Counted from the first letter of the stretch, positions 2,924 to 45,015 are shown. The stretch is 64,000 bases of DNA from an uncultured delta proteobacterium (GCA_963798485.1 CAWCTR010000007.1:224001-288000); one strand, 5' to 3'. Notes: a model not told the origin generated them from the sequence alone. Numbers and translations are program-made.

Positions 2924-3034
2924 CCGGTGCTTTCCTTTCCCTGCACGAACTTTCTGCATAGAGGCCGATCATACAGGTATTATTCAATAATAATGTGCAT
3001 ATCAGGGTATGCACCCGGATCGATCCTTATGGCC

Positions 3035-34372: not shown

Positions 34373-35425
34373 TTAAAACCACGACCGGTGGCTCCAGATG
34401 TCATCCTTAAGGCACTGCATGTCCTGCTTCAGCAGTAGGTACATGGATGCGTTCTGGATGGCCAGACCGCCCAGGCCGGCAACGGCTTCTGCCAGCATGA
34501 CCTCGCCCTCGGTGAAATCCCTTTCTTCTGCGGTATAGTACCTCATGACGCCGATGACCTCGTCCTTGGCCTTGATGGGCACCGTAAGGATGGAGGTGAT
34601 ACCCTCCTTTTTTTTCTCATCCTTGTACTGAACCTCTTTGTTGCTCGTGGCGTCGTTGATGATCACGGTCTTTCCCTTGAGCGCCTCGGTGACGCTCTTC
34701 TCGATCCTCACCGGGCCCTTGTTCAGATACTTCTTGCTCAGGCCGTAACTGGCTACAAGCTCAAGGACCTGCTTGTCCTTATCGATGAGCCGTACGGAAA
34801 CCGCTTTGACCTCAAGGGCATGGGCCATGTCCACGGACAGACGCTCCATGATTATTTTTATATCCAGACTCTCGTTGAGCCCCTGGGCTATGTTGGTAAA
34901 GATGCGGATGTTCCGTGTGATCTGCATGACGAGACGGGCCCGCTCAATGGCCATTCCGCCCTGTTCGGCAAGCGCGGTGAGGAAAAGGATCTCGTCTTCG
35001 GAAAAGATCCGGGGCTTGTCGGTATACAGGGTGAGCACGCCCTTTACCCTCTCCTTTACGATGACCGGCACTACCAGGATGGATGCGATCCCTTCCTTCT
35101 TTTTGAGTTCGTGGGTCTTCACCCTCGGGTCTTTTGTGGCATCGTGGATGGCGACATATCCCTTTTTCATGATTTCTTCGGAAGCCCGCTTGGCCTCCCT
35201 GGGCTCGGCGTGGAGATAGCTCTTTGAGAGTCCTTTCTGGGCTATGGGGACAAAGATATCACTTTCTTTCTGCTCGTCTTCGAAGAAGAGGCATGCCGCC
35301 TTGCCATCCATGGTGTCAATGGCGCTCTGCACAATGAGGTCCAGCAGCTTTTCCTTTTTCAGCGTGGTGCCCAACGCCCTGCTCACCTTGCAGAATGTCT
35401 TGAAGTAATCGCTTTTCTCAGACAT
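34373..35425 (-). CDS. Tandem GAF-GAF protein with no output domain
   Basis: Two repeats of GLSK.YL...KKKEGI.SIL.VP...F...E. Confidence 0.8.
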   Translation of the reverse strand: MSEKSDYFKTFCKVSRALGTTLKKEKLLDLIVQSAIDTMDGKAACLFFEDEQKESDIFVPIAQKGLSKSYLHAEPREAKRASEEIMKKGYVAIHDATKDPRVKTHELKKKEGIASILVVPVIVKERVKGVLTLYTDKPRIFSEDEILFLTALAEQGGMAIERARLVMQITRNIRIFTNIAQGLNESLDIKIIMERLSVDMAHALEVKAVSVRLIDKDKQVLELVASYGLSKKYLNKGPVRIEKSVTEALKGKTVIINDATSNKEVQYKDEKKKEGITSILTVPIKAKDEVIGVMRYYTAEERDFTEGEVMLAEAVAGLGGLAIQNASMYLLLKQDMQCLKDDIWSHRSWF

Positions 35426-36626
35426 TTTCTATCTCCTTTGAGCGTGTGGTATTCTTTGTCCTGGTCGTCCACGAGGCCTTTGCAGCCTTTTTCGGCGTCT
35501 TGCGGACAGGCTGTTTTTTCACGGTCGTTTCTTTTTTCGGCATGTCTCTGTCCGTAAGCCACTGTACGATCTTTGGGGTGAATTCCCTCTGGGTCTTGGA
35601 GCTTACGTATATGCCGATGTGGCCTGTATCAAGGCAGAGATCTTCCTTGTCCGTGCCCCCTACTGCGCCGGTGAGCTTGTCTGCAGCCCCGGGCGGCACG
35701 AGGTGGTCGTATTGGCCGTAGATATTGAGGAGCGGCATGGTTATCTTTTTGAGGTCTACGCGCTTGTCTCCCACTACCAGCTGGCTCTTTATAAGGAGGT
35801 TCTTCTGGTAGCAGTCCTTCACGAACTGCCGGAAGGTCTCGCCCGGCACATCCGGGCTGTCAAAGATCCACTTCTCCATGCGGATGAAGTTCTCCACAAA
35901 GACCTTGTTGTCCATGTTCTCCATAAAACCCACATACTTGTCGATCATGAGGCGCGCCGGGTTCAGCAGGAGGAAACCGAAGTTCATGATGTCACCAGGC
36001 ATGTTGCCGAAGGAATCGATCATCAGGTCCACATCCACGTTTTTCATCCAGATGTGCAGCAGTCCCTGGTCGGTGTCAAAGTTGGTGGGCGATACCGTGG
36101 TCACAAGGTTTCTGACCTTCTCGGGGTGAAGGGCCGAATAGATCACACAAAAGGTACCCCCCATGCAGATGCCCATGAGATTAACCTTGTCCGCCTTGCA
36201 CCTGACCCTTATGTGGTCCACAATGTCGTCCATGTAACCGTTCACGTGGTCGTCTATGGTAAGGAACTTATCCTTCCTGGAGGGATACCCCCAGTCGATC
36301 ATGTACAGGTCGATACCGGCCTGAAGAAAGTTCTTCACCACGCTGCGCTCTGGCTGGAGATCGAGCATGGTCTCACGGTTTATAAGGGCATAGACTACCA
36401 GCAGCGGGGTGGTGATCTCTTTTGACGGCTCGCGCATGGGCAGGTAATGCTTCAGCTTGACACGGTCCTGCTGGTAGATCACCTCGTACGGGGTGGTGGC
36501 TATTGCTGTTTCCAAAGGACCCAGCAGCACCTCGGAGGCCTTTTGGGCACGGTCCTGGACCTTGTCCGCATCCTCGGCAAGGTGCTTCAGGATTATGTCG
36601 ACCGGGATCTTTGGTTTTTCCTCCAT
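35418..36626 (-). CDS. phaC: Class III poly(hydroxyalkanoate) synthase, catalytic subunit
   Basis: YALINR, GICMGG lipase-like box, DHLVP, GHIG. Confidence 0.92.
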   Translation of the reverse strand: MEEKPKIPVDIILKHLAEDADKVQDRAQKASEVLLGPLETAIATTPYEVIYQQDRVKLKHYLPMREPSKEITTPLLVVYALINRETMLDLQPERSVVKNFLQAGIDLYMIDWGYPSRKDKFLTIDDHVNGYMDDIVDHIRVRCKADKVNLMGICMGGTFCVIYSALHPEKVRNLVTTVSPTNFDTDQGLLHIWMKNVDVDLMIDSFGNMPGDIMNFGFLLLNPARLMIDKYVGFMENMDNKVFVENFIRMEKWIFDSPDVPGETFRQFVKDCYQKNLLIKSQLVVGDKRVDLKKITMPLLNIYGQYDHLVPPGAADKLTGAVGGTDKEDLCLDTGHIGIYVSSKTQREFTPKIVQWLTDRDMPKKETTVKKQPVRKTPKKAAKASWTTRTKNTTRSKEIENV

Positions 36627-36629
36627 AGT

Positions 36630-37412
36630 TTAGCCTCCGGATGCAGCCGACTTCTTGAGGTCCTTGTTCACCTTTTCCAGGTCCTTCACCCGTTTTTTGA
36701 GGTGATAGAGCTCGTCGTACAACTCGTCGAGGTCCTTGTTCGTGGGTATGGGCAATGACTGCAGGGCATCCGTAACGATCTGATTGCGGGCGCTCAGGTA
36801 GCCCTCATAGGAGCTCAGGGTATCGTTTAAGGTCTTGGTGTACTCGGACGTTTTGAACAGGGTCATGTAGTGGCCTTCGAGGATCTTCACCCATAATCGG
36901 TAGTACTCGTGGGGGTCTTCGGGGGTTTTGCCTTCCCGAATCTGTTCCTCGATCTTATCATGCAAAACCATGAATGCCTTCTCCATGGGGAGCATCAGGA
37001 CATGCATGAATTCGGCAAAGGCGGTGGAAAAGACATTGAACTTGTCAATGGTCTGGTAAAACCTTTCCTGATAAAAGCGCACCAGGCCGAGCTGGGGGAC
37101 CTTGAGGTACTGGCGTATCTCCTTGTCATAGAAGTCGGACCATACCTTGATGCTGTCCTGGTCCAAGTTTTCGAACCTATAGGCCTCGGTGCGTTTTCCA
37201 AGGTCCTTGAGTTTGTCTGCGGTCTGTTCATGGATCTTCAAAAAGCTCGACATGCCTGTCTGGAAGAATTTTGTCATGATGTCCGGCAGCGTTGCAAATC
37301 CACTTGCCAGGGCGCCTGCTGCGGACGGCTCGCTCATGGCGGAAGACAGGGTGCCCCAGGTTTTGATAATGGAGAGCAGGGCATCATTGGTATTCGATTG
37401 TTTCTCATCCAT
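36630..37412 (-). CDS. phaE: Class III PHA synthase subunit PhaE
   Basis: PQLGLVR, LPIPTNKDLDELYDELYHLKK; directly upstream of phaC. Confidence 0.85.
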   Translation of the reverse strand: MDEKQSNTNDALLSIIKTWGTLSSAMSEPSAAGALASGFATLPDIMTKFFQTGMSSFLKIHEQTADKLKDLGKRTEAYRFENLDQDSIKVWSDFYDKEIRQYLKVPQLGLVRFYQERFYQTIDKFNVFSTAFAEFMHVLMLPMEKAFMVLHDKIEEQIREGKTPEDPHEYYRLWVKILEGHYMTLFKTSEYTKTLNDTLSSYEGYLSARNQIVTDALQSLPIPTNKDLDELYDELYHLKKRVKDLEKVNKDLKKSAASGG

Positions 37413-37611: not shown

Positions 37612-37686
37612 GCGGGAATAACTCAGTGGTAGAGTGTAACCTTGCCAAGGTTAAAGTCGCGGGTTCGAATCCCGTTTCCCGCTCCA
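37612..37686 (+). tRNA. tRNA-Gly(GCC)
   Basis: GCGGGAA/TTCCCGC acceptor stem, anticodon loop TTGCCAA, GTTCGAATC T-loop, encoded CCA. Confidence 0.97.
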
Positions 37687-37982: not shown

Positions 37983-38186
37983 ATTATTGTCCCTTTCTTT
38001 TGGCGCCAAAAGAAAGGGACGAAAGAAAAGGCGCCCCGTGAACCCGCCCTTCGGGTCCGTTCGCTCGCTTGGAAAATCCGGGCCGCGGCTGAACTCGCTC
38101 CGTTTCACTCCGCTCAGACAGACGCCGCTGTTCCCCCGGATTTTCCCGCACTCGCTCACCGGGTTCAAGGGGACGAACAAAAACCC
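37983..38186 (+). repeat. ~204-bp structured repeat element, copy A (left flank of cassette array)
   Basis: Near-identical reverse complement at 44812-45015; terminal hairpin GTCCCTTTCTTTTGGCGCCAAAAGAAAGGGAC. Confidence 0.9.
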
Positions 38187-38430: not shown

Positions 38431-38889
38431 ATGGATCTCAATCTAAGCTGGCACAAACATCTACCATTAACGGATGACTCAGAGAACAACGGCGTCTACA
38501 CAGTTGATCTCTCTCGTATTCCAAACTCCGCAGGTATCTATATGTTCTTTCGGGTCCACGGGGATTCGGCCAAGTGCCTCTATGTCGGAAAGGCAACAAA
38601 CCTGAAGGCCCGGATCAAGACGCAACTGAATAATTCGAAGCTAATGCAAGGCATCAAGAACTCGGCCACGGGAGCGCGGAGGTTGATATTCGGGGAGTTC
38701 ATCGCAAAACCCGGCCAACAAGAAGAGAGAAGTTTGTTGGCTATGGAACGCACACTGATTAGACACTACCTTTCGCTGGGTGAACAGTTGTTGAATATCA
38801 AAGGCACACGGATGGTAAAGAACTCAGTCACTTCTGACCGTCCAGAACTGAAGAGTTTCATCCCTCATGTGATTTACTTCGAGGAGTGA
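38431..38889 (+). CDS. GIY-YIG nuclease family protein (integron cassette 1)
   Basis: SAGIYMF...LYVGKATNLKARI, conserved E and N; bounded by GTTGGGCC (38399) and its complement GGCCCAAC (38896). Confidence 0.8.
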   Translation: MDLNLSWHKHLPLTDDSENNGVYTVDLSRIPNSAGIYMFFRVHGDSAKCLYVGKATNLKARIKTQLNNSKLMQGIKNSATGARRLIFGEFIAKPGQQEERSLLAMERTLIRHYLSLGEQLLNIKGTRMVKNSVTSDRPELKSFIPHVIYFEE

Positions 38890-38896
38890 GTGCATG

Positions 38897-38991
38897 GCCC
38901 AACAAGGCGCTCCAGGCGGACCCCTGGGGCCGTCAGTCCTTGCAAAGTTTTCCGTTCACCTGCCCCAGGGGCCGCTGAGCTTGGCCGTTAT
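38897..38991 (+). other. Integron attC site 1 (R' box interrupted by intron)
   Basis: R'' GCCCAAC; arms GCTC(C)AG(G)CGG(A)CCCCTGGGGC / GCCCCAGGGGCCGCTGAGC with extrahelical bases; R' GTTAT|GA. Confidence 0.9.
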
Positions 38992-39635
38992 TCGCGATGC
39001 GAAGTTGCATAATCGAATGTGATTACAGGAGGATAGAGAAACTGGAAATCACCTGGTGTGTCTCCGCCAGTACCCTAGGACGGCATGCGTGCTGTGCGTT
39101 GTGCAGCGGGTGTGAAGCCCGTCCGACAATGTACCGAACCGGGAGGAAGCCGTGAGGTGGAATCCCATCCGAGAATCCCGCTCGGTTAAGGGCTAGGGTC
39201 AGGGCAATATGGCGAGAACAGGCAAAGGATTTCACGCGCCGTCAGACGAGCAACGGACCTACAGGGATTAAGAGGTCTAAGACGTGCTTCTCATGTGTTT
39301 GCACGTGTGGGGAGGTTGCAGGTTGCTAACGTACCTGCACGGGTCCTAATAAGCCACCGGCGTTCAAGTCCCGCCTACGTTGTCCACAATGGTCGATTAT
39401 GCAGAACGCAGTAACCCCACCCCTTCGCCCGGTGCAAGACCTGGCAGGCATTACCGTAAGGCGTGCTGTCGGAGCGGTGGGAAAGAGAGGTCGGAAGAAG
39501 CAAATGCCGCAGGTAACGCTACGGATAGGGCATGAGACATGGCCCGACGCGAAAACCGGGAGCATCAGCCCCGGTGAGAGCGTGCAGACGTCCGACCGGT
39601 GTCTTGGTGCGAGAGAACTTGGAGAACCTTTGGAG

Positions 39636-41135
39636 ATGGGAAGGCAAAAGACGGCTGATAAGGCTGGTGCACTCATCGCTGACGCGCAGAAGTGGAAATC
39701 CATTGACTGGAGAGACTTAAGGCGTCAGGTCAGAAGGCTGCAGGTACGTATCGCACAGGCTGTGAAGGAAACCAGGTGGAACAAGGTAAAGGTGCTTCAG
39801 TATCTGTTAACCCGCTCGTTATACGCCAAGCTGATGGCTGTGAAACGGGCGACCTCCAACAAGGGGAAGAATACCCCTGGCGTTGACGGCGTCTTGTGGC
39901 GAAGCGCCCGAGCCAAATGGCGGGCTGCGTGCAGCCTGCGCAGACGTGGCTACAAGCCTCAGCCGCTCAGGCGGATTTATATCCCGAAGAAGAATGGGAA
40001 GAGGAGACCTCTATCGATCCCAACCATGCAGGATCGGGCAATGCAGGCACTGTATAAACTGGCACTGGCCCCGGTAGCGGAAACAACTGCCGACAGAAAT
40101 TCCTACGGCTTCCGTGAAGGACGGTCGTGTGCCGATGCAGTAGCAGCAGCATTCAATGCCCTGTCCAAGCCGAACTCGGCAACCTGGGTGATGGAGGGAG
40201 ACATCGAAGGATGTTACGACAACATCTCCCATGACTGGATTCTCAGAAACATTCCGATGGATAAGACCGTGCTGCACAAGTGGCTGAAGGCAGGGTACGT
40301 GGAAGACAACAAAACGTATCCGACCCGCAGAGGAACACCGCAAGGAGGGATAATCAGCCCGACCATTGCAAACATGACGCTCGACGGTCTGGAGGAGGTC
40401 ATCCAACGTGCAGTCCCCCGTCGAAGCCGAGTCAACTTCATCCGCTATGCCGATGACTTCATCATAACAGGCAAATCAAAACGTCTGTTGGAAGAAGACA
40501 TCAAGCCTGCGGTGGAGATGTTTCTTGCGGAACGCGGTCTATCCTTATCACCAGCCAAGACTGCGATCACCTACATCAAGAACGGGTTTACGTTCCTCGG
40601 GCAAACTTTCCGAAAGCATGGACGGGTGCTGCACATCACTCCGGCAAAAGAGGGAGTCCTCGCCCTCGTACGGAAGTTGGGAACGATTATCCGCAAACAC
40701 GTCAGCGCGCCGATGCCGGTCCTGATCAAGGAGTTGAATCAGACACTCCGAGGCTGGGCCAATTACCACCGCCACGTGGTAGCGTCGGATGCCTTCTGTC
40801 GCATCGACACCTATGTCTTCGAACAGTTGTGGCGTATGGTGCACAGGCGTCATCAGAGCAAGCCCGTGAAATGGCTGATCAAGGAATACTGGACAGCCTC
40901 GGGTCTAAAACATATATTTGCAGTACGCTCGAAAGATGCCAAAGGTCGAGTAAAAGTATATCAGGTTCTCAGAGTATGCACCATAGGCATTCGAAGGCAT
41001 AGGAAGATCAAAGCAGACGCGAACCCTTACTTGCCGGAATACGCTGCTTACTACTGGCAGCGCAGGCATGAAAAGGAAAGCAAACTGCTTGCGGCCCTCT
41101 CTGCTCGACAGATTCGAGCGATGAAGGCCGCTTAG
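39636..41135 (+). CDS. ltrA: Group II intron reverse transcriptase/maturase (RVT_N, RT, X; no HNH domain)
   Basis: WKSIDW...VRRLQVRI, TPGVDG, GTPQGGIISP, RYADDF, LRGWANY; start inferred because the upstream in-frame extension overlaps ribozyme domains II-III. Confidence 0.9.
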   Translation: MGRQKTADKAGALIADAQKWKSIDWRDLRRQVRRLQVRIAQAVKETRWNKVKVLQYLLTRSLYAKLMAVKRATSNKGKNTPGVDGVLWRSARAKWRAACSLRRRGYKPQPLRRIYIPKKNGKRRPLSIPTMQDRAMQALYKLALAPVAETTADRNSYGFREGRSCADAVAAAFNALSKPNSATWVMEGDIEGCYDNISHDWILRNIPMDKTVLHKWLKAGYVEDNKTYPTRRGTPQGGIISPTIANMTLDGLEEVIQRAVPRRSRVNFIRYADDFIITGKSKRLLEEDIKPAVEMFLAERGLSLSPAKTAITYIKNGFTFLGQTFRKHGRVLHITPAKEGVLALVRKLGTIIRKHVSAPMPVLIKELNQTLRGWANYHRHVVASDAFCRIDTYVFEQLWRMVHRRHQSKPVKWLIKEYWTASGLKHIFAVRSKDAKGRVKVYQVLRVCTIGIRRHRKIKADANPYLPEYAAYYWQRRHEKESKLLAALSARQIRAMKAA

Positions 41136-41226
41136 GAGGTATCACAGTCGGGCCGCTCCACAGGAGCTGCCTTCAAAGATGCTTGAGCCGTATGATGGGA
41201 AACTATCACGTACGGTTCTGAGGGGG

Positions 41227-43167
41227 TTGCGCCTTGAAGCGTTTGGAATACAGTGGTCTGAAATGACCACCTTGGTAAAGCCTAGCCAGCAGCCAAGTAC
41301 CGAGTCTTGCGTGGTGAGCGGTAACAATCACTGCGAAGCGTAGACAGGAAGGTGATAGGCCGGAATCGAAAGATGAAGAGGATAATTAGCCCCGAAATCG
41401 AACGTGTTTGAAGCAGTCGACCTTATCTCTCTATGGGGAAGACAACAATCTCATGGTCGCTTAATGGCAAGAACATGAGATTGCTTCCGGGGTACGAACC
41501 TACGGCATGTTACCAAAGGATTCCAAGTGAACAAGGGAGATCCGGCGAACCCAGGCGGAGCCTGTAGGAACAAACAAGCCTACAAAGCGAGGATGTTCCG
41601 ACGGTTTGTCGGAAGTCGGACTGGCTGATAGTACTCAGAGACAGGGAGAGCCTGTTACAAGGGGAAGCGGCCAGCGGGATTTGAGCTCTTCTAAGGAAAC
41701 ATGAGCTCCATACAAAGGGAGGATACGAGCCTTAATGCAAAGTAAGGATAACTCAGTCATGGGAACGGGATTAGAAGGGATAGCAGCAAAAGCTCGAAAG
41801 GAAACAAAGCTCAAGTTCACGACATTATGCCATCATGTCACCCGAGAGTTGATCTGGAAGAGTCTGAATAGCATTCCTAAACAATCGGCACCGGGAGTGG
41901 ATGGTATCAGCGTGGAGGAGACGAAGAAGACATTCGATGCATGGATAGACGAGATGCTAACATCCATACACCGAAAAGCCTACCATGCACCACCGGTAAG
42001 GCGGGTTTGGATACCCAAGCCTGGGAAGACCTCCAAGAGGCCTATAGGCGTACCTTGTATGGCGGACCGAGCACTGCAAAGAAGTGTTTCGGTGGTTCTG
42101 TCAAGTATTTATGAACAGGACTTTCTGCCGTGCTCATTTGGAGGCCGACCGAAACTGAGTGCCCATCATGCCCTATCCACACTCAATGAAATCATAGCGG
42201 GCAAGAAGGTCAGTTGGGTACTCGAAGCAGATCTAAAGAACTTCTTCGGTAGTTTGAACCATGGATGGATAGAACGGTTTGTTGAACATCGAGTCGGAGA
42301 CCCGAGGATTATAAGCTTGATAAGGCGATGGTTAAAGGCTGGCGTCCTGGAAGAGGGCGAGGTGAAACCGGTTGAAGAGGGGACTCCCCAAGGGGGGTCC
42401 ATCAGTGTACTGCTGAGCAATATATATCTCCATTACGTTTTGGATCTTTGGTTTGAAAGGGTGATAAAACCCAAACTGAAGGGAGAAGCCTATCTGGTAA
42501 GGTATATAGATGATTTTGTAGTATGCTTTCAGCTTAGGTCGGATGCGATCTTCTTCCAAAAGGTACTGGTAGAAAGACTTGAGAAGTTTAGCTTGGAATT
42601 AGAACCTGAGAAGACCCGGTTAGTGGAGTTCGGGCGCTTTGCCCAACGCGAGGCAAAGGAAAAGGGTAAGAGCCTGGAGACTATATACTTTCTGGGATTT
42701 ACCCATTACTGTACCCGCAACCGCAAGGGCAACTTTATGGTGGGTCGCAAGATAGAAAAGTCTCGATTCCGGCGGAGTGTTCAAAATTTACAGGCACTGA
42801 TGCGGGAAATCAGGCACTATTCCTTGGGAGAACAACTTGAGAAAATCAACCAAGTGCTGAGAGGCCACTATGCTTACTATGGAGTAGGTGGGAACGTTAA
42901 ATCATTGTTCAAGATTTACCGTATTGCCGAAAGATACTGGCGTAAGATGCTGAGTAGCCGGAGCCAGAAGAGCTACATAACCTGGGATAGATTCTGTTGC
43001 CTTAAGCAGGTGTTTCCGTTACAGCAGCCCAAGCTTTCTGTACCCTTCGGGAGGATGAAAGCACTCGCTGTGCTGTGAAACAAATTCTGAAGAGCGTAGT
43101 GCGGGAAATCCGCACGCTACGTTCTGTGGGGGTTGGGGCTGCCAATTTGCAGCCCCTTCTACCCGGC
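41227..43167 (+). mobile_element. Inner group II intron (class E-like), 1941 nt, nested in domain VI of the outer intron
   Basis: 5' TTGCG; domain I closing stems CCTTG/CAAGG and TTGGAAT/ATTCCAA; domain V 43092-43124; domain VI ending CTACCCGGC. Confidence 0.88.
41735..43078 (+). CDS. ltrA: Group II intron reverse transcriptase/maturase (YIDD; no endonuclease domain)
   Basis: KFTTLCHHV, APGVDG, GTPQGGSIS, RYIDDF, KTRLVEFGRFA, FLGFTHYC, LRGHYAYYG. Confidence 0.9.
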   Translation: MQSKDNSVMGTGLEGIAAKARKETKLKFTTLCHHVTRELIWKSLNSIPKQSAPGVDGISVEETKKTFDAWIDEMLTSIHRKAYHAPPVRRVWIPKPGKTSKRPIGVPCMADRALQRSVSVVLSSIYEQDFLPCSFGGRPKLSAHHALSTLNEIIAGKKVSWVLEADLKNFFGSLNHGWIERFVEHRVGDPRIISLIRRWLKAGVLEEGEVKPVEEGTPQGGSISVLLSNIYLHYVLDLWFERVIKPKLKGEAYLVRYIDDFVVCFQLRSDAIFFQKVLVERLEKFSLELEPEKTRLVEFGRFAQREAKEKGKSLETIYFLGFTHYCTRNRKGNFMVGRKIEKSRFRRSVQNLQALMREIRHYSLGEQLEKINQVLRGHYAYYGVGGNVKSLFKIYRIAERYWRKMLSSRSQKSYITWDRFCCLKQVFPLQQPKLSVPFGRMKALAVL

Positions 43168-43212
43168 GAACGGGGCGGTAACGCCCCCGACCTACCCGGT
43201 GAGTAAAAGGTG

Positions 43213-44643
43213 ATGAGAACATTTTATAGATTTCGATCAACGCATACTTTGCTTGATGGCCGCCATGAGTTGGAGAACCAAGAGATTTATTTTGCATCAC
43301 CAGAAGAACTCAATGACCCCATGGAGGGCTTCAAAGACATTTATTGGCAAGGAGATGAGGTTGCATGGAAAAACCTTATGATTCATTATCTCCTCTGTCT
43401 GGAACACGTGTGTTCATTATTTATTGTTGGAGGTAATAGCGTTGCCATCAAGACAGGAGACATTCCTGTTTTCAAGACAGAAGAACAACTGCCTACTGTG
43501 CAATACAAAGGCTTGTTCAATGAAATAATGAATAAGTTCTTCGGAAATGAAATGATTAGTCAATGTATAAAGAATCTTTCGAGCAGGTCAAGCCCAGTAC
43601 GGCGAAGTGAGTTACTGACTTATATCAGAAGTTTTCATCCATATGCTCTGGAAACTATATTTGCTTTATACGAACGCCACCACCTAATTGATAAGCGTAA
43701 AGATACAGATCAAATTCGCCAGATTGCTGAAGAAACTTTGTCACACTCCCCGATCTTATTGGAACTTACAAATAAATTTGAAGAGGAGCATCCTGATGTA
43801 GAGCGTAGTGCGGATAAGCTTTTCTCTACTGCAGCGCATATAGCTTCACAACTCGGTTTGATTACGAGATACAATGTTTCACCTCCTAACGATGATAATA
43901 GAATATTCCTCCTTTTCGGCTTCCCCGATGGGTACATCCAAAGCATTGAGCGAATTGTGTATCCTGACTGGTATGCAGCCTGTTTCATGACAAAGTACAG
44001 CAACTCTTCCGTATGGGGAAATTATGGAAATAAGCATCAAGGTGTATGCCTATCTTTCAAAGCAGTGACCGATAATGATCGCGCTTATATCAAGCTTTAC
44101 GGAATAAATGGATGGGGTAGTTCTGGCCCAAGCTATGGGATAAGAGATCATACGTTCTATAAGATTGATTATGAAAAGAAACACGTCGAAGTCGATTTCT
44201 TTAGGTCTTTAGGTCGTCTTCCAAGCCCTGTATTGATGAAGTGTTGGTATACTAATGAAAACGGCTCAAGAAGTACTTGTGCTGACGACATTTTTAAATA
44301 CGAGGATCAGTGGAGGGAGAGATACTGGACAAAATTCTACCAAGGAATAACTACGAAGATTGTGGATTGGATGTATGAGGAGGAATACAGACTGATTCTG
44401 ACCGGTTCCATTTTGGATTATAGTGATCCTGAGAGCAGAAAGCTCAAGTTTGACTTCAATGACTTGGAAAGCATCACATTCGGGATAAAAACCTCAACAG
44501 AAGATAAACTAAAGATAATGAAAATAATTGAATCGAAATGTCGAAGCGAGAATCGGAAAGAATTCGATTTCTACCAAGCTCATTATTCCTGGCAAACAGG
44601 AACCATAGAACGTAGCAAAATGGATCTACTTTGCTTTGCATGA
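43213..44643 (+). CDS. DUF2971-like protein (integron cassette 2, AT-rich)
   Basis: YRFRS...IYFASPEELNDPMEG, WGNYGNKHQGVCL, K..DW.YEEEYR motifs; followed by R'' TACTCATAAC. Confidence 0.7.
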   Translation: MRTFYRFRSTHTLLDGRHELENQEIYFASPEELNDPMEGFKDIYWQGDEVAWKNLMIHYLLCLEHVCSLFIVGGNSVAIKTGDIPVFKTEEQLPTVQYKGLFNEIMNKFFGNEMISQCIKNLSSRSSPVRRSELLTYIRSFHPYALETIFALYERHHLIDKRKDTDQIRQIAEETLSHSPILLELTNKFEEEHPDVERSADKLFSTAAHIASQLGLITRYNVSPPNDDNRIFLLFGFPDGYIQSIERIVYPDWYAACFMTKYSNSSVWGNYGNKHQGVCLSFKAVTDNDRAYIKLYGINGWGSSGPSYGIRDHTFYKIDYEKKHVEVDFFRSLGRLPSPVLMKCWYTNENGSRSTCADDIFKYEDQWRERYWTKFYQGITTKIVDWMYEEEYRLILTGSILDYSDPESRKLKFDFNDLESITFGIKTSTEDKLKIMKIIESKCRSENRKEFDFYQAHYSWQTGTIERSKMDLLCFA

Positions 44644-44649
44644 AAATAC

Positions 44650-44675
44650 TCATAACAAGCTAATCCAGCGGCGGG
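44650..44675 (+). other. attC site 2, left half only (truncated)
   Basis: TCATAAC-AAGCT-AATCCAGCGG resembles the left arm of attC1; no complementary right arm found. Confidence 0.6.
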
Positions 44676-44706
44676 TGGCCTTGGAATGAGAGGAAATCCT
44701 GGGTGA

Positions 44707-44736
44707 CACGGGCGAAGCTCAAAGAGCTTGCCCGTG
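44707..44736. repeat. GC-rich palindrome
   Basis: CACGGGC(G)AAGCTC-AAA-GAGCTTGCCCGTG hairpin. Confidence 0.5.
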
Positions 44737-44758
44737 GGATAGGAAAGTTAAAGACGTA

Positions 44759-44811: not shown

Positions 44812-45015
44812 GGGTTTTGTTGTTCCCCCCTTGAACCCGGTGAGCGAGTGCAGGAAAATCCGGGGGAAAGCGGCGTCTGTCTGAGCGGAGTGAAACGGAG
44901 CGAGTTCAGCCGCGGCCCGGATTTTTCAAGCGAGTGAACGTACCCGAAGGGCGGGTTCACGGGGCGCCTTTTCTTTCGTCACTTTCTTTTGGCACCAAAA
45001 GAAAGTGACAATAAT
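44812..45015 (-). repeat. ~204-bp structured repeat element, copy B (inverted; right flank of cassette array)
   Basis: Reverse complement of 37983-38186 with about ten differences. Confidence 0.9.

Follow-up and report, generated by a model that had tools for sequence, protein, structure and literature searches.

We analyzed a 64,000-nt window from the genome of an uncultured delta proteobacterium (GCA_963798485.1, CAWCTR010000007.1:224001–288000; 4.3 Mb in 32 contigs). At positions 38992–43200, the recombination site (attC) of an integron gene cassette is split by group II intron sequence that starts with TCGCG directly after ...GGCCGTTAT and ends with ...CTACCCGGT (Table 1). These outer ends agree with an original prediction made from the window sequence alone, which had assigned the span (as 38986–43209) to a single 4.2-kb intron. 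That part of the prediction fell: the span is a twintron, in which one intron (I2) lies inside domain VI of another (I1).

Two Introns, One Nested in the Other

The span holds duplicate sets of ribozyme parts. Rfam matches to domains I–IV occur twice (RF02012 at 39052–39193, 91 bits; RF02005 at 41261–41502), as do matches to domains V/VI (RF00029 at 41183–41276, 61 bits, and at 43090–43167, 46 bits, both over the gathering score). Two open reading frames (ORFs) for a reverse transcriptase (RT), at 39636–41135 and 41735–43078, are both intact and both carry RVT_1 and GIIM (maturase) domains, and neither carries an HNH domain. The supposed single intron is therefore two introns. I1 and I2 each possess the group II hallmarks of a domain V/VI core and, within domain IV, an encoded RT bearing a maturase domain; both introns may be active at present. 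Consensus group II termini are 5' GUGYG...AY 3'. I1 instead has UCGCG...GU and I2 has UUGCG...GC, and such off-consensus ends are common to each intron's own clade; within the I1 lineage, 5' ends are UCGCG, UUGCG or GUGCG and 3' ends are GU or AU.

The boundary between the two introns is set by a second I1 copy in the same genome (C7:635779–638017, minus strand, 97% identical, 2272 nt). Its domain VI is uninterrupted, ends in ...CCTACCCGGT, and corresponds to window positions 41219–41226 joined to 43168–43200, which bounds the inner intron at 41227–43167. In the window, domain VI of I1 is split after its fifth G, and deleting the insert gives back domain VI as it stands in the intact copy. I1 thus comprises 38992–41226 plus 43168–43200 (2268 nt), and I2 comprises the intervening 1941 nt. 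The 3' part of I1 is identical to the intact copy and is conserved, with compensatory changes, in 26 relatives. A DNA contig from sequencing run X4 also links 41226 to 43168, with 20 letters only on one side; it may simply represent the second genomic I1 copy.

Full copies of I2 occur alone in two other introns of the genome (C18:3107–5047, 100% identity; C3:1935–3908, 89%). These copies bear directly on the reading of the span as one group IIB intron with a single RT. Its outer bounds and the rejoined attC core would be compatible with one excision event, but the two full domain sets, the two RT ORFs, and the free-standing inner copies speak against it, and the intact 2272-nt outer copy without 41227–43167 refutes it, leaving it virtually no chance. 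A composite unit, with I2 a fixed passenger of I1 rather than an independent invader, is very improbable: the introns share a strand and an excised outer lariat would take I2 along, but the second I1 copy lacks I2, no insert occurs in the 26 relatives whose domain VI can be read, identical I2 copies occupy a different host intron, and the hosts of I2 relatives have RTs 26–66% identical to the RT of I1 (RT1) or I2 (RT2). We conclude that the span is very probably a twintron of two retroelements, each homing to a structured, conserved DNA motif.

Table 1. Features of the twintron and its flanking cassettes, in window coordinates (EBS, exon-binding site; R'', L'', L', and R', the ordered boxes of an attC site)
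Feature	Position	Strand	Basis or remarks
Upstream cassette ORF, 152 aa, GIY-YIG domain	38431..38889	+	PF01541, E 6.2e-5; ends 8 nt before R'' of site A
attC site A up to the intron	38897..38991	+	attC architecture score; R'' GCCCAAC (38897-38903), spacer AAGGC, L'' GCTCCAG..., L' ...GCTGAGC, spacer TTGGCC, GTTAT (38987-38991)
I1, 5' part: end UCGCG, domains I-V, first 8 nt past domain V	38992..41226	+	Rfam RF02012, RF00029; 97% second copy
EBS1 hairpin of I1	39317..39339	+	Compensatory changes in stem; exon/loop co-variation
RT/maturase of I1, 499 aa: RVT_N, RVT_1 (YADD), GIIM, no endonuclease domain	39636..41135	+	
Domain V of I1	41185..41218	+	RF00029 and plastid domain V models; hairpin 8 nt before the I2 insertion point
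I2, 1941 nt, 5' UUGCGCC, 3' CUACCCGGC, inside domain VI of I1	41227..43167	+	
EBS1 of I2 (CUCU)	41427..41430	+	Exon co-variation
RT/maturase of I2, 447 aa: RVT_1 (YIDD), GIIM, no endonuclease domain	41735..43078	+	
Domains V and VI of I2, bulged A at 43161	43092..43167	+	RF00029 at 43090-43167, 46 bits
I1, 3' part: remaining domain VI, GNRA-capped helix, bulged A at 43194, end ...CCCGGU	43168..43200	+	
Downstream cassette: rest of R' (GA...), ribosome-binding region, 477-aa ORF, attC-like site	43201..44750	+	

The Outer Intron Belongs to a Clade Found at attC

I1 splits the R' core of site A as GTTAT/GA, in cassette orientation and 4 nt past the G/TT crossover. Removing the twintron joins GTTAT to GAGTA and yields GTTATGAGTA, a normal cassette junction as originally predicted. 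It is complementary at 10/10 positions to the next R'', TACTCATAAC, which occurs once in the following 4500 bases, 1446 nt downstream, where it heads the next attC-like site after the 477-aa ORF. Complementarity of this kind marks a cassette in which R' and R'' pair in the circular form. It reaches 9/10 at three loci of the scan described below (L065, L022, L050) and 10/10 in the window alone; the remaining I1-clade loci show no R'/R'' match at ≤1 mismatch, and we count this feature as support for the window locus only.

To score attC sites, we used an architecture score that seeks AAC...GTT with paired L boxes behind 4–7-nt spacers, with 300 CGTTA sites from the same genome as controls. Site A meets the full layout (R''–L''...L'–R', AAC/GTT ends, paired L boxes) and scores 7.0, above all 300 controls; within 20 kb around the locus it is the only such site. 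As validation, the score recovers at least 11 sites in C5:742–10092, beside the integrase gene at C5:12795–13733. Two earlier detectors were set aside. One required paired spacers, found nothing, and was dropped since attC spacers are unpaired; the other, based on minimum free energy, discriminated poorly (10/17 flanks in the top 10% of controls) and was replaced by the architecture score. By genome-wide count, the left-arm motif of the two flanking sites is no common repeat.

The second genomic I1 copy lies at the same position of another attC-like site (GTTAA/), and an RT1 scan across 185,579 species genomes, with 80 loci returned, extends the pattern. Relatives at ~69–80% identity, mainly in metagenome-assembled genomes (MAGs) of Thermodesulfobacteriota, contribute 15 further distinct 5' junctions, giving 17 with the genome's own two. 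Sixteen of these end in GTT.. (9 GTTAT, 3 GTTAG, and one each of GTTAGG, GTTAA, GTTGA, and GTTGGG), and the base at +1 is G at most sites. Remoter relatives (44–62% identity) have the canonical GTGCGAC start and lie at unrelated sites, with GTT in the last seven bases at 0/28 junctions. Nine of the 17 close-clade flanks score above every control for attC architecture, and two more fall in the top tenth. As a rough check on orientation, 10/14 loci have an open frame on the intron strand that ends ≤70 nt from the attC. Two loci (L012, L020) are 5'-truncated, and L026 has no domain I match.

A quick maximum-likelihood analysis of 55 RTs groups the 19 close-clade rows in a single clade (Shimodaira–Hasegawa-like approximate likelihood-ratio support 100, stem 0.61) with no non-attC row inside it. 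The tree left out the 27 loci lacking a single stop-free match of ≥400 aa (L048, L050, L057, L064–L082, then, L083 excepted, L084, L086, and L088–L090). By these junctions and this tree, insertion into the top strand of attC R' is a clade-wide rule of the I1 lineage. The prediction of a non-class-C lineage sitting in attC in cassette orientation accordingly stood up, with 5' exons at attC ends among the homologues.

The class assignment draws on RT1 itself, in which RVT_N is present and HNH absent, as had been read from the window. Compared with solved RTs, RT1 matches 6me0_C (the T.el4h RT) at 546 bits over residues 11–483, versus 139 bits each for LtrA and the class C RT of GsI-IIC. PMC8643678 classes the T.el4h intron as IIB1 with a CL1 RT. 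I1 would then be a group II intron with a CL1-type, endonuclease-less RT, as judged by similarity to one solved CL1 RT, and its 139-bit match to GsI-IIC places it outside class C.

Additional observations concern the spread and decay of the clade. In one Desulfocapsa MAG (L019, L022, L023, L024), near-identical I1-clade copies occupy three or more different attC sites, which means that the intron has proliferated within an attC array. The first bases of L019 contain a second 3' end. The element at L084:3467–4632 (1166 nt) retains the UAACG loop and is probably ORF-less or deleted.

Target Recognition by the Outer Intron

The hairpin at 39317–39339 (stem TGCAGG/CCTGCA), with CTAACG at 39326–39331, behaves as the EBS1 proposed in the original prediction: it is conserved in the clade with six stem variants, all paired, and its loop either keeps UAACG or co-varies with the exon. 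UAACG pairs with exon CGUUA (−6 to −2), in line with the predicted 5/6 match of CUAACG to the window exon CGTTAT. Where the exon departs from the common form, the loop follows, as in GGTTA with TAACC (L014) and AGTTAGG with CCTAACT (L050). Position −1 is paired in the second genomic copy (A–U), L065 (U–A), L018 (G–C), L024 (G.U), and L067 (A–U), and by eye in L068 (G–C, as in L018). Across matched intron–site pairs, the paired run averages 6.14 against 5.63 ± 0.16 for shuffled pairs, with 7 of 2000 shuffles as high. Runs of 5–8 bp with co-variation correspond to the EBS1 pairing with its intron-binding site (IBS1) of ~6 bp expected of IIB1/CL1 introns.

No second pairing emerged: EBS2–IBS2, including EBS2a–IBS2a, did not rise above shuffled controls when domain I columns were compared with exon positions −7 to −14, in a small sample where the best column paired 5/5 in at most 4 of 15 sequences and shuffled controls reached 5. 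Because the genome contains 3461 CGTTA sites, we infer a contribution to specificity from the hairpin immediately upstream. By analogy with class C introns, which use terminators and attC bottom strands as hairpin targets in the consulted parts of PMC4424553 and PMC7923331, the attC hairpin, exposed as single-stranded DNA, would supply the remaining specificity. Base pairing alone is probably not the whole of I1 recognition. The original proposal of targeting by base pairing is thus upheld for EBS1 and probably incomplete overall.

It is nevertheless conceivable that I1 finds its target through EBS1–IBS1 alone, without hairpin or single-strand recognition, and that the attC link arises because CGTTA is the attC core and insertions elsewhere are purged by selection. 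The co-variation of exon and EBS1 fits this account, as do the six of 17 flanks, L050 and L067 included, that have GTTA at the junction yet no clear attC architecture. Against it, both genomic I1 copies lie at attC-like sites despite the 3461 CGTTA sites available, nine of 17 flanks exceed every one of the 300 controls, and 5–7 bp without EBS2 is far below the 6 bp + 6 bp of IBS1 and IBS2 given for IIA/IIB introns in the consulted part of PMC7923331. We consider pairing alone unlikely, and favor EBS1 pairing combined with the attC hairpin.

The Inner Intron Lineage Targets Domain VI of Group II Introns

Each of the three full I2 copies in the genome occupies domain VI of a different host intron, 8 nt past domain V. 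Searching metagenomes with RT2 returned at least 584 relatives, 80 of which were kept for analysis. A closed domain V-like hairpin ends 7–10 nt before the junction in 50 of the 60 loci that include the 5' end and ≥50 nt of flank (7 nt in 32 loci, 8 nt in 16, 9 nt in 1, 10 nt in 1). Where at least 900 nt of upstream sequence is available, a same-strand RT ORF precedes the inner intron in 20/27 loci and ends 44–388 nt before it. The 26–66% identity of these host RTs to RT1 or RT2 shows the hosts to be diverse, with the I2 lineage itself among them (L125).

That the upstream hairpin might belong to the I2 element, as a duplicated domain V with no host intron, is extremely improbable. A fixed 7–8-nt spacing is possible for an element-borne feature, but the hairpins are of many kinds (GAGCCGGA in 16 loci, GAGCCGTA in 10, GAACCGGA in 7, GAACCGCC in 5, and others), an RT ORF precedes them in those 20 of 27 loci, the three genomic copies resume domain VI with its bulged A after the insert, and similarity between copies starts exactly at UUGCGCC. 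The pattern points instead to a lineage whose homing site is domain VI of other group II introns, 7–8 nt past the domain V hairpin.

Insertion is also matched by a short pairing. In 60 of 66 members, a 3-nt segment of a domain I loop (CUC in the window, 41427–41429) is paired to the three bases at the exon end, against 39.1 ± 2.5 of 66 for shuffled partners (0/2000 shuffles reach 60), and a fourth EBS1 position is paired in 61/66. The window site GGGG forms two G.U pairs with CUCU; the identical copy in L004 (AGAG) pairs perfectly. A stem-loop just before a 3–4-nt IBS1 is the class C mode of target recognition. RT2 itself has no clear nearest class among solved RTs (GsI-IIC 127 bits, 7uim (IIC) 120, LtrA 118, and 6me0 (CL1) 98).

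Within the family, nesting extends to its own members. Among L125, L127, L136, L158, and L170, some I2-family members lie inside a host of the same family (the host RT at L125 is 66% identical to RT2), and a sub-group starting with GUGCGCCG likewise follows a domain V; self-nesting arrays seem likely. At L100 (~2940–3001), a relative with 5' GUGCGCC stands behind two short GC-rich hairpins and no domain V; it resembles a class C intron after a terminator and may preserve the ancestral habit.

Observations That Weigh Against the Interpretation

Several findings pull away from this account of the two lineages. For I1, the junction at L084 lacks GTT, the sole exception among 17, and six of the 17 flanks (L065, L085, L016, L068, L050, L067) score no better than controls. 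The window exon at −1 (U) faces a C of EBS1, and −1 is mismatched at 8/14 sites analyzed. The RT tree comes from a quick search only, and the class of I1 leans on similarity to one solved CL1 RT. Integrases are also distant: the three integron integrases (IntI, NCBIfam cut-off) of the genome lie on contigs C5, C12, and C19, none near I1, and IntI is above cut-off in four of five other host genomes but never near the intron (hundreds of kb away in the two hosts with an integrase on the same contig). The I1 sites therefore stand alone as attC sites or form small clusters that lack an integrase. For I2, ten of 60 flanks miss the strict domain V rule; some of these are still domain V-like by eye, and L100, L108, L137, and L149 are not. 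RT2 scores point to no clear class for I2. No assembled contig in the sequencing runs bridges the exon–I1, I1–I2, or spliced-exon joints, and stretches without cover carry no evidence either way.

Proposed Mechanism

From these target rules, we envisage the following sequence of events. An I1-clade intron would reverse-splice into the top strand of attC, in R' after GTTA+N and 4 nt beyond the crossover, its EBS1 loop UAACG(U) pairing with exon (A)CGUUA. Insertion 4 nt past the integrase crossover makes I1 formally part of the downstream cassette. I2 would then have entered the DNA of I1 domain VI by reverse splicing, with the domain V hairpin and a 4-nt pairing as guides; in that pairing, the EBS1 of I2 (3–4 nt) contacts the 5' strand of the domain VI stem. 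In the RNA, I2 splits the basal helix of I1 domain VI, the branch helix, so that I2 should splice before I1. An obligatory order is suggested by this geometry: I2 leaves first and restores the branch-point helix, and I1 follows. Splicing of I1 would rejoin GTTAT/GAGTA upstream of the ribosome-binding site of the cassette, 10–13 nt before the ORF start.

Separately, a wetland metatranscriptome library (X20) contains two 151-nt contigs identical to the I2 ORF (42281–42431 and 42840–42990). They may derive from RNA or from carried-over DNA and do not demonstrate transcription.

Genomic Context

No IntI was found within the window, and the site here is one of two attC sites that lie without an integrase next to a tRNA gene. 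The tRNA gene (Rfam, 72 bits) occupies 37612–37683, ~1.2 kb upstream of the first attC-like site, and polyhydroxyalkanoate (PHA) synthase genes lie at 35418–37412 on the opposite strand; the small attC cluster is within a tRNA-flanked intergenic island. The 477-aa downstream ORF (43210–44643) matches no known family and is followed by the attC-like site at ~44647–44750. The main integron array of the genome, on C5, has at least 11 attC sites in ~10 kb, an integrase scoring 460 bits, and no I1 copy; a second tyrosine recombinase gene (C5:11654–12457) lies between array and integrase.

The cassette/twintron region is flanked by an inverted repeat of ~190–206 bp (37983–38186 and 44812–45015, 94% identical). 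At least five more copies (178–191 bp) occur on C7, C30, C11, C4, and C13, together with shorter fragments, and the repeat could be an element resembling a miniature inverted-repeat transposable element or a structured repeat. The GC skew of contig C7 reveals no origin or terminus. A third group II intron family in the genome yields four domain V/VI matches, all at 64 bits (C17:79233, C2:14161, C7:625985, C14:505640), and its domain VI regions look unoccupied.

Implications

Two unrelated non-class-C lineages may have converged on class C targeting, that is, on a hairpin plus a very short IBS1. This convergence, one lineage using the attC top-strand hairpin and the other domain V of group II introns, is a tentative reading with slightly less than an even chance. 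The I2 lineage would be an undescribed and widespread hyperparasite, with at least 584 relatives, that finds its safe harbor in the hairpin most conserved among elements of its own kind. It suggests that domain V and the domain VI stem serve as a homing site, which would explain how introns multiply without harm to host genes. A 2015 review (PMC4424553, as consulted) lists homing sites, terminators, and attC as the three target specificities of bacterial introns; such homing would add a fourth. Annotation pipelines that discard twintrons, as described in the portions consulted of PMC4028801 and PMC8919778, could have overlooked a lineage of this type.

For integrons, an R'-splitting clade becomes part of the downstream cassette and can be carried by the integrase, placing between cassettes a spliceable insert of 2–4 kb with its own promoters and RT. 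A single published case of a IIB1 intron at attC becomes a testable lineage rule with a defined EBS1. Both lineages offer natural examples of targeting guided by structure and needing very little base pairing, a combination relevant to designing gene-targeting introns.

Comparison with Known Systems

The literature searched yielded no published description of a domain-VI-homing lineage; several key papers lay outside that search, and an earlier description is possible. The nearest parallels to I2 are, in the consulted parts of the reports, the introns that home into the YADD-coding motif of an RT gene (B.th.I3, M.a.I5, UA.I3, and P.l.I2; PMC2504315) and the T. elongatus twintrons, whose target is in domain IV (PMC2882425). 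Like I2, these use a conserved part of another group II intron as homing site and produce twintrons. I2 differs in its target, the ribozyme itself in domain VI, 7–8 nt past the domain V hairpin, in its 3–4-nt EBS1, and in its several kinds of host. Class C introns inserted after intrinsic terminators (PMC1702495, PMC4424553, as consulted) resemble I2 in having an upstream stem-loop, a 3–4-nt IBS1, and no EBS2; for I2 the stem-loop belongs to another intron, as its domain V, and RT2 does not fall clearly in class C.

For I1, the well-described counterpart is group IIC-attC (S.ma.I2 and relatives), which, in the consulted parts of PMC7923331 and PMC4424553, home to attC sites of integrons and integrase-less clusters through a DNA hairpin and a short IBS1, without an endonuclease domain. 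Those introns, of class C, enter the bottom strand at R'' (TTGT/T) and run against the cassette orientation. I1 instead occupies the top strand in R' (GTTAT/G, GTTAN/), shares its strand with the neighboring cassette ORFs, and has a CL-type RT by its bit scores. PMC7923331 also cites one class C intron in an attC top strand.

I1 is not itself new in kind. The view that only class C introns had been described at attC is outdated by UHB.I2, from a soda-lake metagenome integron, which Sonbol & Siam (2021, PMC7923331) describe as IIB1/CL1 and endonuclease-less, speculating on a role for the attC top-strand hairpin. UHB.I2 shares with I1 an endonuclease-less CL1-type RT, cassette orientation, a position immediately after an attC site, and off-consensus termini as printed (5'-UUGCG..GU-3'); by its published description, it would belong to the I1 clade. 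The consulted part of that report presents a single case with no exon conservation among homologues, whereas 16 of 17 junctions in the I1 clade follow the rule. The clade-wide rule, the fixed position inside R', and an EBS1 that co-varies with the exon extend that earlier work.

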